Of a stretch of 7,121 bases of DNA, positions 1-7,121 are shown in pieces. The notes beneath the pieces are model-generated. The model was not told where the DNA came from, made no database searches, and worked only from the letters and a program-made list of their open reading frames with translations. Origin of the DNA: a virus (Duplodnaviria > Heunggongvirae > Uroviricota > Caudoviricetes); the IMG/VR virus record IMGVR_UViG_2579778929_000007; one strand, written 5' to 3'. Made by a program: the position numbers and the translations under genes. Within the stretch, counting starts at the first letter, position 1, and each line of letters opens with the position of its first letter.

Positions 1-306
1 GAAGAACTGACTGACATTCGCGACACACTGAATACGGCAATTGATAAGGAGTTGTCCCGTACAACCAGCGATGCGCTGTTTCTGGCGCTGCGCCGGGTGA
101 AAGCAGATCTGAATGCGGATATCAACACGCGCCTTGAACAGTCTGCACGGATCATTCAGCGCACACCGGATGAGGTTTTACCCGCGCTGGTGCTGGCGGC
201 GACCTGGTTTGATAACGCGACGCGTGACGCGGACATTATCCGGCGTAATGCCATTACGCATCCCGGCTTTGTGCCGGTGATCCCTCTGAAGGTGCCAGTG
301 CAATGA
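1..306 (+). CDS. C-terminal fragment of the tail-module protein that precedes the baseplate hub (the position occupied by the Mu gpN/gp43-type DNA circularisation protein); 5' end lies outside the window
   Basis: Frame 1 is open from base 1 (the ORF track starts it at an internal TTG at 52) and runs to TGA at 304-306. That stop overlaps the ATG of the next gene (ATGA at 303-306), indicating coupling to the hub gene. Product assigned by synteny only. Confidence 0.5.
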   Translation, partial: EELTDIRDTLNTAIDKELSRTTSDALFLALRRVKADLNADINTRLEQSARIIQRTPDEVLPALVLAATWFDNATRDADIIRRNAITHPGFVPVIPLKVPVQ

Positions 307-1382
307 ACGACAATGTCACGCTACGGGTAAATGGCCGGGAGTGGAATGGCTGGACATCGGTGCGCATCGGTGCCGGTATTGAACGGCTGGCGCGGGATTT
401 CAGTGTGGAGATCACCCGCCAGTGGCCGGGAGATGAGGGTATCACCACGCTTCAGCCGCGCATTAAAAACGGTTCAAAAGTGGAAGTGCTGATTGGTGAT
501 GAGCTGGTGATCACCGGCTGGGTGGAGGCGACTCCCGTTCGTTACGATGCCCGTTCGGTCAGCACCGGTATTGCCGGACGTAGTCTGACCGCTGACCTGA
601 TTGACTGTGCAGCCGAACCGACACAGTTTAACGGACGATCGCTGGTACAGATTGCGCAGGCGCTTGCTGCGCCTTTCGGCATTGAGGTGGTGAACAGCGG
701 TGCGCCGTCGGGTGTTATTCCTGATGTCCAGCCTGATCACGGTGAAACGGTGATTGAGGTAATCAACAAAATACTCGGTCAGCAGCAGGCACTGGCTTAC
801 GACGATCCGCACGGCAGGCTGGTGATTGGCGGTATTGGCTCAACGCGGGCACATACCGCGCTGGTACTTGGGGAAAACATCCTTTCCTGTGATACGGAGA
901 AGAGTATCCGGGAGCGGTTTTCTGTTTACCAGGTGGCGGGGCAGCGTGCCGGAAACGACGATGATTTCGGTGAGGCCACCACCACCGCGCTGCGGGCCCG
1001 CACAGAGGACGCATTTATTGCCCGTTACCGTCCGATGTATATCAGGCAGACAGGGCAGGCTACGGGGGCAGGCTGTATTGCGCGTGCTGACTTTGAAGCC
1101 CGGCAACGGGCGGCGCGGACGGATGAAACCACCTATGTGGTGCAGGGCTGGCGACAGGGTAACGGTACGCTGTGGCAACCCAACCAGCGGGTGATTGTCT
1201 TTGATCCGGTCTGTGGTTTTGACAATACCGAACTGCTTGTTTCGGAAGTCACGTTTACTCAGGACCAGAACGGCACCCTGACGGAAATCCGTGTCGGCCC
1301 GCCTGATGCTTATCTGCCTGAACCTGAAGACCCCGGCGCGCGGAAAAAGAAAAAAGCCAGAGTACAGGAGGCCCCGTTCTGA
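303..1382 (+). CDS. Baseplate hub protein, Mu gpP/gp44-like (P2 gpD late-control-D family)
   Basis: 359-aa ORF in the co-directional tail string, high GC, start overlaps the upstream stop. Size and position match the hub protein of Mu-type baseplates. Ends in a lysine-rich tail (ARKKKKARVQEAPF). Family call is from recall and synteny, not a search. Confidence 0.7.
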   Translation: MNDNVTLRVNGREWNGWTSVRIGAGIERLARDFSVEITRQWPGDEGITTLQPRIKNGSKVEVLIGDELVITGWVEATPVRYDARSVSTGIAGRSLTADLIDCAAEPTQFNGRSLVQIAQALAAPFGIEVVNSGAPSGVIPDVQPDHGETVIEVINKILGQQQALAYDDPHGRLVIGGIGSTRAHTALVLGENILSCDTEKSIRERFSVYQVAGQRAGNDDDFGEATTTALRARTEDAFIARYRPMYIRQTGQATGAGCIARADFEARQRAARTDETTYVVQGWRQGNGTLWQPNQRVIVFDPVCGFDNTELLVSEVTFTQDQNGTLTEIRVGPPDAYLPEPEDPGARKKKKARVQEAPF

Positions 1383-1930
1383 TGAGGACGATTGAAGCCA
1401 TGCAGCGACAACTTCTCGGCCTGATTGGGCGGGCAGTGGTGAAAAGCATCAGTGCCGCCACGAAATGTCAGACCGTGGATGTGTCCCTGATTGCCGGTGA
1501 ACCCAAAGCCGGGGTTGAACATCTTGAACCCTACGGTTTTACCGCAAGGGCAAACAGCGGTGCGGAAGCGGTGGTGTTGTTTCCGGATGGCGACCGTTCT
1601 CATGCGGTGGTTGTTACGGTGTCGGACCGGCGCTACCGCCTGAAAGGGCTGCATACGGGGGAGGTGGCTGTCTATGACGATCAGGGGCAGTCCGTGACGC
1701 TGACCCGGGAGGGGATCGTGGTGGACGGTGCAGGTAAAACGATCACGTTTCGCAATGCGCCTAAGGCTCGTTTTGAAATGGACCTGGAAGTGACCGGACA
1801 GGTGAAAGACCTGTGCGACTCCACCGGCACCACCATGTCAGCGATGCGGCTTGCCTATAACGGGCATCGTCACAGAGAGAACGGTCAGGGCAGTAACACC
1901 GACAAACCTGATAAAGCGATGGAGGCATGA
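1382..1930 (+). CDS. Baseplate spike/assembly protein, Mu gp45-like (P2 gpV family)
   Basis: 182-aa ORF. ATG at 1382 overlaps the hub stop (TGATG at 1380-1384). GGAGG at 1367-1371 upstream. Size and position are typical of gpV-like spike proteins following the hub. Confidence 0.65.
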   Translation: MRTIEAMQRQLLGLIGRAVVKSISAATKCQTVDVSLIAGEPKAGVEHLEPYGFTARANSGAEAVVLFPDGDRSHAVVVTVSDRRYRLKGLHTGEVAVYDDQGQSVTLTREGIVVDGAGKTITFRNAPKARFEMDLEVTGQVKDLCDSTGTTMSAMRLAYNGHRHRENGQGSNTDKPDKAMEA

Positions 1931-2355
1931 TGGAACTGTGGCTGACGGTGAACGGTAAACGCACCTGCGCCAGCGCACCGCTGGATCCGCTGACCCGTGC
2001 CGTGGTGATTTCCCTGTTCACCTGGCGGCGGGCTGAACCTGATGACAATGCCGACGTCCCGATGGGATGGTGGGGGGATACCTGGCCTGCGGTACAGAAT
2101 GACCGTTACGGCTCCCGACTGTGGCTGCTTCAGCGCAGCAAACTGACCAATCAGCTGGTGCAGACGGTAAGGGGATATATCCGCGAATGCCTGCAATGGA
2201 TGATTGATGACGGCGTAGTGTCCCGTATTGATCTGGATATCCGCCGCACCGGGATTAATGAGCTGGGTAACAGTATCACCCTCTGGCGTCGTGACGGACC
2301 GGTAATGATTTCTTTTGATGATCTGTGGAGTGCGATAACGCATGGCGGACAGTGA
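1927..2355 (+). CDS. Baseplate protein, Mu gp46-like (GP46 family)
   Basis: 142-aa ORF. Overlaps the previous stop (ATGATG at 1927-1932). GGAGG at 1921-1925 suggests the second ATG at 1930 may be the real start. Position between the spike and the baseplate J-like gene. Confidence 0.6.
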   Translation: MMELWLTVNGKRTCASAPLDPLTRAVVISLFTWRRAEPDDNADVPMGWWGDTWPAVQNDRYGSRLWLLQRSKLTNQLVQTVRGYIRECLQWMIDDGVVSRIDLDIRRTGINELGNSITLWRRDGPVMISFDDLWSAITHGGQ

Positions 2356-3400
2356 ATTTCAACGCCCGACGCTGGCAGAAAATATCAGTATGCTCCGTAA
2401 CGATTTATTCGCCAGGCTGGACGTCAGCGACACGCTCCGGCGCATGGATGAAGACGTGCGGGCAAAGGTGTATGCGGCGGCGCTGCATACGGTTTACGGT
2501 TACATCGATTATCTGGCAATGAACATGCTGCCTGACCTGTGCGATGAGTCCTGGCTGGCGCGACATGCTGCGATGAAACGGTGTCCGCGCAAGGGGGCCA
2601 CGTCTGCCAGCGGGTATATGCGCTGGGAAGGTGTCAGCGATGGCCTGAAGGTGACCGCCGGGAGTGTTATTCAGCGCGATGACCTGGTTCAGTACACGGC
2701 AACTTCTGATGCAACCAGCTCCGGTGGTGTCCTGCGCGTGCCGATCGCCTGCTCAACTGCAGGCGCGGTCGGTAACGCTGACGACGGTACGGCATTAATC
2801 CTGGTCACGCCGGTGAATGGTCTGCCGTCTTCCGGTGTGGCAGATACCCTGACTGGCGGATTCGATACTGAAGATCTGGAAACGTGGCGCGCCCGCGTCA
2901 TTGAGCGGTATTACTGGACGCCGCAGGGCGGGGCTGACGGGGACTATGTCGTCTGGGCTAAAGAAGTGCCCGGCATTACCCGCGCATGGACATACCGTCA
3001 CTGGATGGGAACGGGAACTGTCGGTGTGATGATTGCCAGCAGTGACCTGATTAATCCCATTCCGGAAGAATCAACGGAAACGGCGGCAAGACAACACATT
3101 GAGCCACTGGCCCCGGTGGCAGGCTCTGATTTGTATGTGTTCAGGCCGGTGGCGCATACGGTGGATTTTCATATCCGCGTGACGCCGGACACACCGGAAA
3201 TACGGGCTGCCATTACCGCAGAGTTGCGTTCATTCCTGCTGCGTGATGGTTATCCGCAGGGAGAGCTGAAGGTATCGCGTATCAGTGAAGCGATTTCCGG
3301 TGCGAACGGGGAATACAGCCATCAGTTGCTTGCTCCGGCGGACAATATCTCCATTGCAAAAAATGAACTGGCGGTTCTGGGGACGATTTCATGGACGTGA
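2342..3400 (+). CDS. Baseplate J-like protein, Mu gp47-like (P2 gpJ family; JayE-like)
   Basis: 352-aa ORF overlapping the upstream gene by 14 nt, with GGAG about 11 nt upstream. Size and position are those of the baseplate wedge J-like protein. Confidence 0.7.
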
Positions 3401-3975
3401 CAAACGATGATTACATCCGTCTGTTGTCGGCACTGCTGCCGCCCGGTCCGGCGTGGTCAGCCAGCGATCCGGCGATTGCCGGTGTGGCACCGTCATTAAC
3501 CCGCGTTCATCAGCGTGCGGATGCCCTGATGCGGGAGCTGGATCCGTGCACCACCACTGAACTGATAAACCGCTGGGAGCGTCTGTGCGGTCTGCCGGAT
3601 GAATGTATTCCCGCAGGGACACAGACCCTTCGCCAGCGTCAGCAACGGCTGGATGCGAAGGTTAACCTGGCGGGCGGCATCAACGAGAATTTTTATCTTG
3701 CACAGCTTGCTGCCCTGGGCAGACCAGATGCCACCATCACGCGATACGACAAAAGCACGTTCACCTGCTCATCGGCCTGTACTGACGCTGTGAACGCGCC
3801 TGAATGGCGGTATTACTGGCAGGTCAACATGCCAGCCGCCACCAACACCACCTGGATGACATGTGGCGATCCCTGTGATTCCGCACTGCGTATCTGGGGC
3901 GACACAGTTGTCGAATGTGTGCTTAACAAACTCTGCCCGTCGCATACCTACGTAATTTTTAAATATCCGGAGTAA
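3391..3975 (+). CDS. Tail protein, Mu gp48-like (DUF2313; P2 gpI analogue; YmfQ-like)
   Basis: 194-aa cysteine-containing ORF overlapping the upstream gene by 10 nt. It sits immediately before the tail-fibre gene, as in Mu and e14-type modules. Confidence 0.65.
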
Positions 3976-3978
3976 TCC

Positions 3979-4281
3979 ATGCATCGTATAGACACGAAAA
4001 CCGCGCAGAAGGATAAGTTCGGCGCGGGTAAGAACGGTTTTACCCGTGGTAACCCCCAGACCGGCACGCCTGCCACCGATCTGGATGATGACTACTTTGA
4101 CATGTTGCAGGAGGAGCTTTGCAGCGTTGTGGAGGCCTCCGGTGCCAGCCTGGAGAAGGGGCGGCATGACCAGCTGCTTACCGCGCTTCGTGCGCTGCTG
4201 TTAAGCCGCAAGAATCCGTTTGGCGATATCAAATCGGATGGCACGGTGAAAACGGCTCTCGAAAACCTTGCTTTAAGATGA
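3979..4281 (+). CDS. stf: Side tail fibre, constant N-terminal (baseplate-attachment) part; in this orientation terminated at TGA four codons after the crossover dinucleotide, giving a 100-aa product
   Basis: ATG at 3979 with GGAG at 3969-3972 (6-nt spacing). The reading frame runs through the candidate crossover site and stops at 4279-4281 (…TALENLALR*). Inversion would replace the last three codons with the glycine-rich tip in frame (see findings). Confidence 0.75.
4256..4281. other. Candidate invertase crossover site 1 (hix/gix/pix-like, 26 bp), central dinucleotide TT at 4268-4269
   Basis: CTCTCGAAAACC-TT-GCTTTAAGATGA. The AAAACC..GxTTTA arrangement around a 2-bp core resembles known Hin/Gin-family sites. 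It lies exactly at the end of the fibre constant region. Confidence 0.6.
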
Positions 4282-4370
4282 GAGTAGTAAACCCCTGTCC
4301 CGACGCCATGATACTATCGACTCATGACTCCTGAGTGTGTACCATTAACACAAAAAAATTGAGGTACATA

Positions 4371-5453
4371 ATGAAAAAAGTATTGATAGTTAGCTTGGTG
4401 GGCATCGGAGATCACTTATTATCACGAGTATTCATGAAATCACTCCGCGATGATGAAAAATATAAGCACGCTAAATTCACCTTGCTTGGCAACACTGCAT
4501 TCAAAGATTTTTCTCTCAAGTTTGATATGAATATATTTAATCATTTCATTTGGGTTGATTGTAATAAGGTTACTCCTTATGTGCAAACCAAAGAGAGCAC
4601 ATATACTAAGATTAAAAATAAAGCCATCAGGTTTTACATCAGAAATTTAATTAAGCACTCAAATTTCGATGAGATTATAGTTCCAGATTGGTGGGGTGCG
4701 TCAACTACTTTGCGTGTTACTCCATTTATCTCTAGTGTGAGGGATAGAGCCATCATCAATGGTATGAATATACCTGACCATCAAAGGGAGTTTTTTGGCT
4801 ATTCCACAAAGCCGGATATTGATTTTTCAAAGCATGTCCTGGATATGAATAAAGAGTTTTTCTCTGAGATTATACCATTTCCTAAATTCGAAGTTGAAAT
4901 TCCACTAAAAAATAAAAATAAAGACAGTGGCAAGATTGATATTTGCATTTCACTGGGAGCCTCTGCGCCTTTTAAAAAATACCCTGTATTACAATTAGCA
5001 AATGTAATAAACAGCATATCATCTTCATACAATGCCAATTTTAAAATCATTGGCTCCAATGATGAAATTTCAGATTACAATGTTCTTATTGAGCATATCG
5101 ATAACAAGGATATTGTAGCAGGTTTTGTTGGAAGGACTACATTATCTGAGTCGTGCGATATTGTTCTTTCATCTGAACTTTTGATTGCAAACGACACAGG
5201 CATGTTCCATGTTGGTGCTCTGGCAGGGATTAAAACTGTTTGTATTTCGAATGGTACTGGTTTGCATGCATTTGTGCCATACCCTGAGGAATTTTCGAAC
5301 TGTATTACGGTTTTCCCACCAGAGATACAAAACAAGGTAGGCACAAAAGATTTTATAAATGCACATGGCTGGTCTGGCTCAGCAATTCCGATGTCGAATA
5401 TATCACCAGACGATGTTCTTGCGGCTTGTTATAAATTGCTAAATAAAAAATAG
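4371..5453 (+). CDS. GT9-family glycosyltransferase (ADP-heptose:LPS heptosyltransferase-like, GT-B fold); substrate unknown
   Basis: The N-terminus KKVLIVSLVGIGDHLLS resembles the first Rossmann strand and G-x-GD motif of GT9 enzymes. The C-terminal LLIANDTGMFHVGALAGIKTVCISNGTG resembles the conserved GT9 donor-binding segment. GAGG at 4361-4364 is 6 nt before ATG 4371. The ORF track starts it at an in-frame GTG at 4335. Strongly AT-rich, by eye about 30% GC against more than 55% in the flanks. Confidence 0.65.
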   Translation: MKKVLIVSLVGIGDHLLSRVFMKSLRDDEKYKHAKFTLLGNTAFKDFSLKFDMNIFNHFIWVDCNKVTPYVQTKESTYTKIKNKAIRFYIRNLIKHSNFDEIIVPDWWGASTTLRVTPFISSVRDRAIINGMNIPDHQREFFGYSTKPDIDFSKHVLDMNKEFFSEIIPFPKFEVEIPLKNKNKDSGKIDICISLGASAPFKKYPVLQLANVINSISSSYNANFKIIGSNDEISDYNVLIEHIDNKDIVAGFVGRTTLSESCDIVLSSELLIANDTGMFHVGALAGIKTVCISNGTGLHAFVPYPEEFSNCITVFPPEIQNKVGTKDFINAHGWSGSAIPMSNISPDDVLAACYKLLNKK

Positions 5454-5463
5454 ATGAAGTAAT

Positions 5464-5859
5464 TCAAGCTGGCTTTTCCGGCCAGCTAATCTCTGCATTA
5501 GTGTTAGCGTCAATCCTGCTCAGCAATACCCGGTATTGCTTCCACAATGGCAGCGCTACGGTTTCTGCATCTGTCGCCATACTCAAATCAACAGCATCCT
5601 GTAAAACGCTAATCTGTTGTGTCGCCTCACTCATCAGTGCGTTTTTTGTAGCCAGATTATTGGCTATTTTCTGCTGTTTTGCTGCCTCAAGTTCTTTATT
5701 AGTTGGCGGTGGCGCACTAAAAACATCGTTATCGTAATGCCAGCCGATACCAACACCATCGGTAGAGAGAATGGCACTTGCTGATTCAGGCCACTCTGAC
5801 TCGCCATCCCAGATAACAATATTTTCTACGATACCATTTTTGATAATTGCATAGTTCAT
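5464..5859 (-). CDS. tfa: Tail fibre assembly protein (Tfa chaperone; Mu gpU / e14 TfaE-like)
   Basis: 131-aa ORF. The C-terminus …LSMATDAETVALPLWKQYRVLLSRIDANTNAEISWPEKPA matches the conserved C-terminal motif of Tfa chaperones. Its ATG directly abuts the TAA of the fibre tip ORF (TAAATG on the - strand), with GGAG 9 nt upstream. Confidence 0.8.
   Translation of the reverse strand: MNYAIIKNGIVENIVIWDGESEWPESASAILSTDGVGIGWHYDNDVFSAPPPTNKELEAAKQQKIANNLATKNALMSEATQQISVLQDAVDLSMATDAETVALPLWKQYRVLLSRIDANTNAEISWPEKPA
5467..5487. terminator. Hairpin between the convergent glycosyltransferase and chaperone genes; possible bidirectional terminator
   Basis: AGCTGGC (5467-5473) pairs with GCCAGCT (5481-5487) around a short T-rich loop. 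It lies between the stop at 5451-5453 (+) and the stop at 5464-5466 (-). No clean U-tract on either strand. Confidence 0.3.
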
Positions 5860-6498
5860 TTACGCATACTCCAAAATAATAATCACGCCAGCATTGCCCG
5901 GGTTGCCGTTGACATTCTGCGCCCCACCACTGGTTGCAGCGCCATTACCACCAGCACCATACCCACCAGGGCCAGAAATAAAGCTACCGCCGCCAAGTCC
6001 GGAACCTACAGTCCCTCCGACTGCTGTTGGGGTTGCCATCACACCGGGCAGCCCGGCGTACCCGTTGCACAAAAGGGCACCCACGGTCGAAGTGCCACCC
6101 TGACCGCCCATGCCACATGACGCAGAGGAACCTGACGCGGTGCAGCCGTTGCCTGGCTGGCCTCCACCTGCTGAGAGATAAGAGCCAAAAGTCGTCGTGC
6201 CGCCCTGTGTACCATTGGTTATCGTCGACGCAATACCGCCATTACCACCCGCACCAATCGTGACAAGCACGGTTGATATCGCAGACAGGTTAAAGAGACC
6301 GCGTGCCATTCCACCGCCACCACCACCGCCACCCGCTGCGTTATAGTTTCCTGTGGAAGTTGCCCAGCCGCCGCCCCCACCGCCCCCAATAGCGATGACA
6401 TCCGCGAACATTGCTCCGGGGGTTTTGGTGTAAGTGCCAGACGTCTTGATTATCTGCATGCCAATCAGACGGCCGACTGCGCCGTTATTTACTAAACC
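5860..6498 (-). CDS. stf: Tail fibre C-terminal variable (receptor-binding) cassette, glycine-rich; not fused to the fibre N-terminus in this orientation
   Basis: The - strand frame is open from the crossover core down to TAA at 5860-5862. Translation is rich in poly-Gly runs (…AIGGGGGGGW…AAGGGGGGGGM…). The first 14 codons of the tracked ORF (6499-6540) lie outside the segment and are probably not a genuine start. Directly followed by tfa. Confidence 0.75.
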   Translation of the reverse strand, partial: GLVNNGAVGRLIGMQIIKTSGTYTKTPGAMFADVIAIGGGGGGGWATSTGNYNAAGGGGGGGGMARGLFNLSAISTVLVTIGAGGNGGIASTITNGTQGGTTTFGSYLSAGGGQPGNGCTASGSSASCGMGGQGGTSTVGALLCNGYAGLPGVMATPTAVGGTVGSGLGGGSFISGPGGYGAGGNGAATSGGAQNVNGNPGNAGVIIILEYA

Positions 6499-6512
6499 AA
6501 CGTTTATGAAAA
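6487..6512. other. Candidate invertase crossover site 2 (inverted relative to site 1), central dinucleotide AA at 6499-6500
   Basis: ATTTACTAAACC-AA-CGTTTATGAAAA. Its reverse complement aligns with site 1 at about 15 of 26 positions by hand alignment, concentrated around the core (AAAC.TTG.TTTA). It sits 55 bp upstream of the invertase ATG. Confidence 0.6.
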
Positions 6513-6566
6513 TGCAGAAATAACGAGCAAATGGCATCATTCCTGCTTTTGTCAGGGAGAGCTACC

Positions 6567-7121
6567 ATGCTTATTGGCTATGTATGTGTGTCAACAAATG
6601 ACCAGAACACAGATCTACAACGTAATGCGTTGAACTGTGTAGGATGTGAACTGATTTTTGAAGACAAGATAAGCGGTACGAAGTCCGAAAGGCCCGGACT
6701 GAAAAAACTGCTCAGGACATTATCGGCAGGTGACACTCTGGTTGTCTGGAAGCTGGACAGGTTAGGGCGCAGTATGCGGCATCTTGTTACGCTGATAGAA
6801 GAGTTGCGCCAGCGTGGCGTGAATTTCCGAAGCCTGACTGACAGTATTGATACCAGTACCCCAATGGGCCGTTTCTTTTTTCATGTCATGGGTGCCCTGG
6901 CTGAAATGGAACGAGAACTGATTGTTGAACGAACAAAAGCTGGACTGGAAGCTGCTCGCGCACAGGGACGAATTGGTGGACGTCGTCCCAAACTTACACC
7001 AGAACAATGGGCGCAGGCCGGGCGATTAATTGCATCAGGCGTTCCTCGCCAGAAGGTGGCGATCATCTATGATGTTGGTATATCGACACTGTATAAGAAG
7101 TTTCCGGTCGGAGATAAATGA
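6567..7121 (+). CDS. pin: Site-specific DNA invertase, serine recombinase of the Gin/Pin/Hin/Cin family
   Basis: Translation from ATG 6567 begins MLIGYVCVSTNDQNTDLQRNAL… and contains …VVWKLDRLGRSMRHL… and …SLTDSIDTSTPMGRFFFHVMGALAEMERELIVERT…GRIGGRRPKL…, closely resembling Pin/Gin/Hin invertases as I recall them. GGGAGAG at 6555-6561 is 5 nt before the ATG. The ORF track extends to an upstream ATG at 6531, which I consider less likely. The stop is at the last three bases of the window. Confidence 0.9.
   Translation: MLIGYVCVSTNDQNTDLQRNALNCVGCELIFEDKISGTKSERPGLKKLLRTLSAGDTLVVWKLDRLGRSMRHLVTLIEELRQRGVNFRSLTDSIDTSTPMGRFFFHVMGALAEMERELIVERTKAGLEAARAQGRIGGRRPKLTPEQWAQAGRLIASGVPRQKVAIIYDVGISTLYKKFPVGDK

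Follow-up and report, generated by a model that had tools for sequence, protein, structure and literature searches.

Does the 7,121-nucleotide (nt) stretch of DNA analysed here in full (the window; IMG/VR virus record IMGVR_UViG_2579778929_000007, Caudoviricetes) contain an invertible tail-fibre segment, as the initial annotation of its sequence proposed, and can this particular copy still invert? The chromosome of Escherichia coli TUM14664 contains the window at 100% identity, and that of strain 102651 contains it at nearly as much; judged by sequence, the window is part of an e14-related E. coli prophage with a Mu-type baseplate. The central inference of the initial annotation is right: the locus holds an invertible fibre segment of the familiar Pin/Gin/Cin type. 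We consider it likely that this Din-family segment is an ON/OFF switch for one fibre tip together with a cargo gene for a family-9 glycosyltransferase (GT9), that its resident invertase is disabled by an Arg-to-Cys substitution at residue 7 (R7C), and that this copy is parked OFF and can be flipped only in trans.

The left crossover site (positions 4256–4281; CTCTCGAAAACC TT GCTTTAAGATGA) has its core at 4268–4269, and the right crossover site (6487–6512; ATTTACTAAACC AA CGTTTATGAAAA) has its core at 6499–6500, with 2233 base pairs (bp) between the cores (a core-to-core distance of ~2.23 kb). On the + strand the cores read TT at the left and AA at the right; that is, the sites have matching 2-bp cores in inverted orientation, so that religation is possible only after inversion. 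A generic inverted-repeat finder run on the window did not list the pair, the arms being too degenerate, and a half-site score with shuffled controls was used instead: every position (~7100) was scored against the Din half-site TTCTCNNAAACC on both arms (maximum score, 20). The left site scores 16/20 and the right site 15/20, with a runner-up at 12. No other position in the window reaches 14/20; dinucleotide shuffles predict 0.14 such positions per window, and only 2 of 300 shuffles contained two or more.

Comparison with known sites, which the initial annotation had put forward as a check, gives the same answer. The Din-site table of PMC3241671 (Table 3) lists pixL as TTCTCCCAAACC AA GGTTTTCGAGAG and pixR as TTCTCCCAAACC AA CGTTTATGAAAA, and both can also be read straight from the K-12 e14 sequence. 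In that table the best match of the left site (reverse-complemented, TCATCTTAAAGC AA GGTTTTCGAGAG) is pixL, at 21/26, and the best match of the right site is pixR, at 22/26. In each case the outer half and core are identical at 14/14 positions, and the differences are confined to the inner halves (GCTTTAAGATGA and ATTTACTAAACC here vs GGTTTGGGAGAA and TTCTCCCAAACC in K-12 e14). The two 26-mers are genuine Hin/Gin/Pin-type crossover sites in inverted orientation, and every coordinate and base that had been assigned to them was verified.

The complementarity of the left and right sites to each other, just 15/26, and their absence from the output of the repeat finder might suggest that the 26-mers are merely hix/gix look-alikes and their in-frame junction an accident. 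Natural Din sites are often poorly complementary to each other. The shuffle statistics and the identity of outer half and core with pixL and pixR speak against the chance explanation, which has practically no probability left and is already refuted by homology with two unrelated prophage backgrounds that breaks exactly at the cores and by reciprocal inversion products observed in nature (both described below).

What would exchange at the cores do to the fibre gene? The constant N-terminal part of the gene (Sc; 3979–4269, + strand; 97 codons) lies outside the segment, and its last codon, CTT (4267–4269), holds the core, the two core Ts being bases 2–3 of that codon. As present in the window, the open reading frame (ORF; 3979–4281, + strand) runs on into the segment and ends ...ENL-ALR-stop, with TGA at 4279–4281, to give 100 amino acids (aa). 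At the segment's opposite end, on the − strand, lies the variable fibre tip (Sv; 5860–6498; Pfam PF21722, Gly_rich_2), a glycine-rich sequence of 212 codons running from GGT (6498–6496) to the stop codon, with the tail fibre assembly (chaperone) gene, tfa, directly downstream (5464–5859, − strand; 131 aa; Pfam PF02413, Caudo_TAP, E 4e-23). Exchange in silico yields ...GAA AAC CTT GGT TTA GTA AAT..., translated ...ENLGLVNNGAVGRL..., and a fused ORF of 309 aa (97 constant + 212 tip) with the assembly gene directly next. The in-frame fusion of about 310 aa that the initial annotation had predicted was thus found at 309 aa, and an exact-sequence look-up found this very protein in NCBI (HAY0280293.1; P0001).

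Related sequences agree with this organization of the gene. K-12 StfP/YcfK shares, over its first 99 aa, 98% identity with the constant part; the same 97 aa open the 309-aa fused fibres of related prophages; in other genomes the constant part to which the tip is fused is of either the StfP type (97 aa) or the P2 H type (~350 aa); and the window, once inverted in silico, is collinear through the junction with five related prophages. The exact 100-aa truncated fibre also occurs in public assemblies, on 15 contigs. The window itself shows the fibre-OFF state, with a 100-aa truncated fibre without tip.

Two sets of observations concern fibres of this type elsewhere. Strains with the element of the window also have a second e14-type prophage, at another chromosomal site (L007 and L030, both GCA_000627475.1; P0003 on a 4,717,304-bp contig), with a permanently fused 309-aa fibre that is 96–98% identical, and one metagenome-assembled locus (L032), which could be chimeric, resembles a recombinant of these two prophages at the crossover site. 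In addition, hundreds of glycine-rich prophage fibres from E. coli and Klebsiella (among P0001–P0190) are labelled 'carbohydrate kinase' at NCBI, a name that was apparently misapplied to the PF21722 glycine-rich domain and then propagated.

As called by ORF prediction, the glycine-rich ORF is longer than the tip (5860–6540, − strand; 226 aa) and begins outside the segment, at ATG 6540, with MMPFARYFCIFINV. This free 226-aa ORF resembles K-12 stfE; StfE2, the inversion product of K-12 stfE, reportedly blocks T2 adsorption. A leftward promoter with a start codon at ATG 6540 (MMPFARYF...), which would drive the tip, or GT9 after inversion, in parallel with K-12 stfE/StfE2, was considered and is not relied on: a simpler reading of the conserved sequence TGGCATCAT is an extended −10 element for invertase transcription.

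Does the segment invert in nature? The GT9 gene is present in only 5/5426 complete E. coli genomes, in two as part of a window-like element and in three as part of a P2-like prophage. The three P2-like copies have the same 2.2-kb segment, 98–100% identical, between gene H and an invertase gene, in the reverse of the orientation in the window: the P2 H constant part continues into the tip (562 aa), and GT9 adjoins the invertase. The homology between the window and the P2-like prophages runs from core to core (query 285–2522, corresponding to window 4263–6500), with breakpoints at window 4263–4265 on the left and 6500 on the right.

Among contigs encoding an identical GT9, the P2-like prophage is present in both orientations. 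In particular, two loci from different genomes (L013 and L014) have flanks that are 99.975% identical on opposite strands and a 2236-bp segment that is 99.955% identical on the same strand, with junctions at 4895–4905 and 7123–7130. At these junctions half-sites are exchanged reciprocally at the core: TTTTCTTAAACG joined to GCTTTAAGATGA and ATTTACTAAACC joined to GGTATGTGAGAA in one locus become TTCTCACATACC joined to GCTTTAAGATGA and ATTTACTAAACC joined to CGTTTAAGAAAA in the other. The truncated P2 H protein predicted for the OFF orientation (353 aa, ending ...YLALR) has an exact counterpart in NCBI (P0031). This very segment, the ~2.2 kb that the initial annotation had called invertible, has inverted naturally at its cores in a sister P2-like prophage.

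The identical cassette (GT9, tfa and glycine-rich tip) is found in two unrelated tail modules, one Mu/e14-type and one P2-type (L001–L003 and L013–L022). The breaking of homology exactly at the 2-bp cores suggests that whole invertible segments are traded among prophages via their crossover sites, apparently passing as cassettes from one type of tail module (Mu/e14 or P2) to the other by recombination exactly at the crossover cores. The P2-like prophage of E. coli NH-21 (L003; L016, 3638–4908) is tip-ON and keeps both sites, with an IS3 element in the place of the invertase. This IS3 insertion is a second, independent means of locking the switch.

In the e14-type background, exchange at the core is supported at the protein level only. 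Both complete genomes with the e14-type element show the orientation of the window. EJZ9505471.1, which differs from the 309-aa fusion by one residue, and the GT9 protein EJZ9505469.1 come from one assembly and are two accession numbers apart, a spacing that fits GT9, tfa and fibre as neighbours. The link between the e14-type fused protein and the GT9 element is strong but indirect.

Can the copy in the window turn itself over? The gene beyond the right site (6567–7121, + strand) encodes a PinE-like small serine DNA invertase of 184 aa (Pfam Resolvase, PF00239, and HTH_7, PF02796), 93% identical to K-12 PinE and 87% identical to the invertase of the P2-like prophage, that matches the Gin structure 3uj3 at E 2e-92 and gamma-delta resolvase at E 2e-30. 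Its N-terminus reads MLIGYVCVSTNDQ, against MLIGYVRVSTNDQ in PinE, in Gin and in each of the nine other invertases of the fetched loci. Specifically, the YxRxS motif is Y5-V-C7-V-S9, leaving the catalytic set incomplete, and the counterpart of residue 7 in Tn3 and gamma-delta resolvase is, by alignment, R8. Codon 7 is TGT (6585–6587) vs CGT/CGC in relatives, a single C-to-T transition. In Tn3 resolvase, R8 contacts the scissile phosphate, and the R8A and R8K mutants show no recombination in vivo and cleavage at most 0.0002 of that of the parent (PMC2794168). The Cys form is present on 44 contigs, vs 918 for the otherwise identical Arg form, and is therefore a real, derived allele; its NCBI name is 'recombinase family protein', not pinE. 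Among the Cys-form contigs read, the tip-side half-site adjoins the invertase, as in the window, in 24/24; in contrast, both orientations occur with the wild-type P2-like invertase at a similar contig number. Given R7C at the R8 equivalent and the single orientation in 24/24 contigs, the resident enzyme is, by analogy with the resolvase, very probably inactive.

By placing a switch beside an invertase gene, the initial annotation had implied that it works locally, and this part of the proposal is probably mistaken. A self-sufficient live switch would have the resident invertase active despite Cys7 and flipping at a normal rate, with both orientations present in cultures. The gene is otherwise intact, as its identity to PinE attests, the sites, a candidate promoter element and an enhancer-like region are all conserved, and the fused protein is present in some assemblies, all of which would suit such a switch. 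We nonetheless regard it as very unlikely: the equivalent Arg is indispensable in the resolvase, where even R8K is dead; Arg is found in Gin, in PinE and at every other locus examined; and the single orientation of the C7 contigs stands against the two orientations seen with the wild-type P2-like enzyme. The proposal as a whole fares unevenly: the invertible unit and its in-frame fusion stand, and the OFF state, the absence of a second tip and the Cys7 of the invertase had been missed.

In the mechanism that we favour, in which the copy is parked OFF and depends on help in trans, invertase dimers would bind both 26-bp sites and cleave the TT/AA cores with a 2-bp stagger; a 180-degree rotation of one half of the synaptic tetramer and religation would then turn over the 2233 bp between the cores. 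With the segment as in the window, the fibre ORF ends three codons beyond the core, at 100 aa and with no receptor-binding tip, and GT9 follows on the strand of the late tail operon. Once the segment is inverted, the constant codons (97) run on in frame into the 212-codon tip; the fibre is then 309 aa long, the chaperone gene comes next, and GT9 is reversed. With the resident invertase inactive (R7C), only another Din invertase acting in trans could flip this copy.

Rescue of this kind is plausible, by analogy with e14, on two grounds: the e14 P segment is inverted by each of PinQ, PinR and PinE, of which PinE also works on two other segments, Mu G and Salmonella H (PMC12529663), and both complete host genomes have two further places each that match the invertase gene. 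The same two grounds bear on the view that the locus is a fully frozen relic, with sites that once worked, a dead enzyme, no trans enzyme that recognises the sites, and a defective prophage with a broken fibre gene. That view accommodates R7C, the shared orientation of all carriers of the allele that were read, and the orientation of both complete e14-type genomes. It is harder to square with the cross-complementation among Din invertases, with the further invertase-like places in the host genomes, with at least one assembly in which accession order puts an e14-type fused fibre beside GT9, and with outer half-sites identical to those of functional pix sites. We consider a frozen relic a serious, if rather unlikely, possibility.

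Several points weigh against a segment that is parked OFF and open to rescue in trans. Both inner half-sites are imperfect, at 7/10 vs the consensus half-site. The inactivity of the R7C enzyme is argued from mutants of Tn3 resolvase, not from an Arg-to-Cys change in a DNA invertase, and the single orientation among C7 carriers could reflect clonal descent, not a lock. The support for a flipped e14-type element with GT9 is at the level of protein and accession only: DNA records of one were sought and none was recovered, and the invertase-side junction expected of it, TCATCTTAAAGC AA CGTTTATGAAAATGCAG..., gave 0 matches in exact scans of metagenome_contigs and of genome_contigs (species-representative genomes). 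Near-identical 309-aa fused fibres are present in related prophages without GT9 (P0074, P0073, P0002 and P0075; these include fixed fusions as well as cases in which the second arm or the assembly gene is not the same), and the exact match to the predicted fusion could stem from such a prophage. Finally, the enhancer described next is recognised by motif and position only.

Two candidate control elements lie outside the segment, next to or within the invertase gene. A candidate Fis-dependent recombinational enhancer (6588–6651) consists of two G-N13-C 15-mers (6588–6602 and 6637–6651) with centres 49 bp apart and a span of 64 bp; it is located 76 bp beyond the right site, within the 5′ end of the invertase gene, in DNA that is nearly invariant among pin genes. 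For comparison, the Hin enhancer is 65 bp long and ~100 bp from hixL (PMC3798978). The block TGGCATCAT (6532–6540, + strand) is invariant in the window, in K-12 e14 and in both orientations of the P2-like prophage, with neighbouring bases that vary, and is a candidate for the extended −10 element in the promoter of the invertase gene.

What does the other arm of the segment bring to the fibre gene? The arm now joined to the constant part supplies Ala-Leu-Arg-stop, then an 89-nt leader (4282–4370, + strand) with a Shine-Dalgarno sequence (GAGG, 6 bases ahead of the ATG), and then the cargo gene (4371–5453, + strand; 360 aa). The ORF list, Pfam and structure matching gave no second tip and no second tfa in 4282–5453. 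The cargo product is a predicted family-9 glycosyltransferase with a heptosyltransferase-like GT-B fold: it matches Pfam PF01075 at 30.4 bits (cut-off, 22), and its AlphaFold 2 model (mean predicted local distance difference test score, 70) has as best PDB matches the GT9 protein 3tov, WaaF (1psw) and WaaC (2h1h). G+C content is 32–36% in the GT9 stretch (window 4351–5450) vs 55–60% in the flanks. Beyond its own E. coli cluster, the nearest GT9 homologues are 24–30% identical, and both of those looked up are part of polysaccharide gene clusters on metagenomic contigs; in the phage collection the segment was absent, and so was any GT9 protein homologue. From its composition and relatives, GT9 looks like recently acquired foreign cargo.

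A sigma-70 scan for a GT9 promoter gave no excess over shuffles, and the sole nearby match (4345–4372) overlaps the ATG. On the simplest reading, GT9 would be transcribed with the late tail operon in the orientation of the window and would be antisense to it in the other. At the point where GT9 and tfa converge, within the last tfa codons, there is a 7-bp stem (AGCTGGC / GCCAGCT) with a 7-nt loop (5467–5487); it may serve to terminate transcription between the arms, although a scan for terminators did not pick it out.

A parallel cassette has a different gene in this place. In L034 (1–2545; also L025 and L026, 7451–8596), a gene for an Acyl_transf_3 (O-acetylase-like) protein stands in the place of GT9 behind the same inner half-site, GCTTTAAGATG. 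The left flank of L034 is a P2-type H constant part and its right flank is an e14-type Cys7 invertase with its chromosomal neighbour, so that either two prophages recombined at their sites to give L034 or the contig is a chimera of the assembly. The acyltransferase gene after the fused fibre in L025 and L026 was considered as an invertible parallel and rejected, there being no second site on these contigs; L034 has one.

We put forward tentatively, as a proposition more doubtful than not, that the segment is more than a two-tip switch in decay, namely a selected two-state module that couples a fibre tip to a surface-glycan enzyme, such that a Din invertase would phase-vary lysogenic conversion and the availability of phage receptors. 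If so, one orientation would give an infective fibre; in the other, a glycosyltransferase acting on lipopolysaccharide or polysaccharide would come to lie behind the tail operon or behind some other outside promoter.

How does the locus compare with known systems? It has the features of a Din system in its sites, their inverted cores, a small serine recombinase of the ~185–190-aa class (resolvase catalytic domain and C-terminal HTH) that groups with the invertases, and inversion observed in the P2-like prophage. It lacks a complete set of catalytic residues (the Tyr, Arg and Ser of YxRxS plus the equivalents of Asp36, Arg68 and Arg71), which concerns the enzyme of this copy and leaves the sites unaffected. 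As in host-range segments (Mu G, P1 C, e14 P and p15B Min), a constant 5′ part lies outside, an in-frame variable 3′ part lies inside, and an assembly gene follows, as also in its relatives; what is absent is a choice of two or more tips, with a separate tip and assembly gene for each orientation.

The nearest relative is the P segment and PinE of the cryptic prophage e14 of K-12, reportedly described by Plasterk and van de Putte in 1985. By sequence comparison, the window has the P-segment system of e14 as it stands in a relative that has decayed less, with a different cassette and an orthologous invertase. The two belong to the same element family (constant part, 98% identical; invertase, 93%; outer half-sites and cores, identical) and share the layout of constant part, site, segment, site and pin, inversion joining the constant part to the − strand tip ORF beside pin. 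They differ in the length of the segment (2233 bp here vs 1797 bp in K-12 e14); in its contents, K-12 e14 having two tips and two assembly genes (stfP-C/tfaP and stfE/tfaE), whereas here there are one glycine-rich tip, one assembly gene, a stop codon and GT9; in the invertase, R7C being absent from K-12; and in the upstream baseplate genes, which are intact here and decayed in K-12. The e14 P segment has been treated by Goldberg et al. 2014 (PMC4272514) and Kirigo et al. 2025 (PMC12529663).

The G segment of Mu with Gin and the C segment of P1 with Cin likewise have 26-bp sites, a 2-bp core, an adjacent small serine invertase, a constant 5′ fibre part outside, and a variable 3′ part and chaperone gene inside the segment. 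In Mu and P1, however, there are two functional tip-and-chaperone sets, and both orientations are infective, with different host ranges, whereas here only one orientation yields a complete fibre. Invertible fibre loci are known from P2-like prophages of E. coli (enteropathogenic E. coli E2348/69; PMC4272514), and P2-like prophages also have the identical 2.2-kb segment, between H and an 87%-identical invertase and in both orientations, set in a P2-type tail module, whereas the copy in the window is set in a Mu/e14-type module. Invertases and mixed cargo have already been noted at the Z/fun hotspot of P2-like prophages (bioRxiv 10.1101/2024.10.15.618418); the published P2-like cases, as far as found, have alternative fibre C-termini and no glycosyltransferase arm. 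Hin and the H segment of Salmonella share the recombinase family, the site architecture and the Fis enhancer logic, and, as here, the outcome is ON/OFF for one gene, not A/B; Hin flips a promoter, whereas here the crossover lies within coding sequence and the switch operates by gene fusion or truncation.

Upstream of the fibre gene, the window contains Mu-type baseplate genes (303–3975, + strand) for gp44/P-like, gp45, gp46, baseplate J/gp47 and gp48 proteins (Pfam PF22255/PF21683/PF21929, PF06890, PF07409, PF04865 and PF10076), a late tail operon that continues into the fibre gene.

Invertible fibre segments are textbook biology, and one more adds little by itself; the e14 segment has recently been linked to anti-phage defence (PMC12529663). 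For annotation, this locus illustrates that the presence of an invertase gene is not the same as an active switch, and that listing the 100-aa and 226-aa ORFs separately conceals one fibre gene. The R7C allele, on its 44 contigs, is a natural experiment on the catalytic arginine of a DNA invertase. The identical cassette in Mu/e14-type and P2-type modules illustrates the trade of receptor-binding modules between unrelated phages via crossover sites, and an ON/OFF fibre switch with a foreign glycosyltransferase arm raises the possibility that an invertase phase-varies a surface-modifying enzyme together with the fibre.

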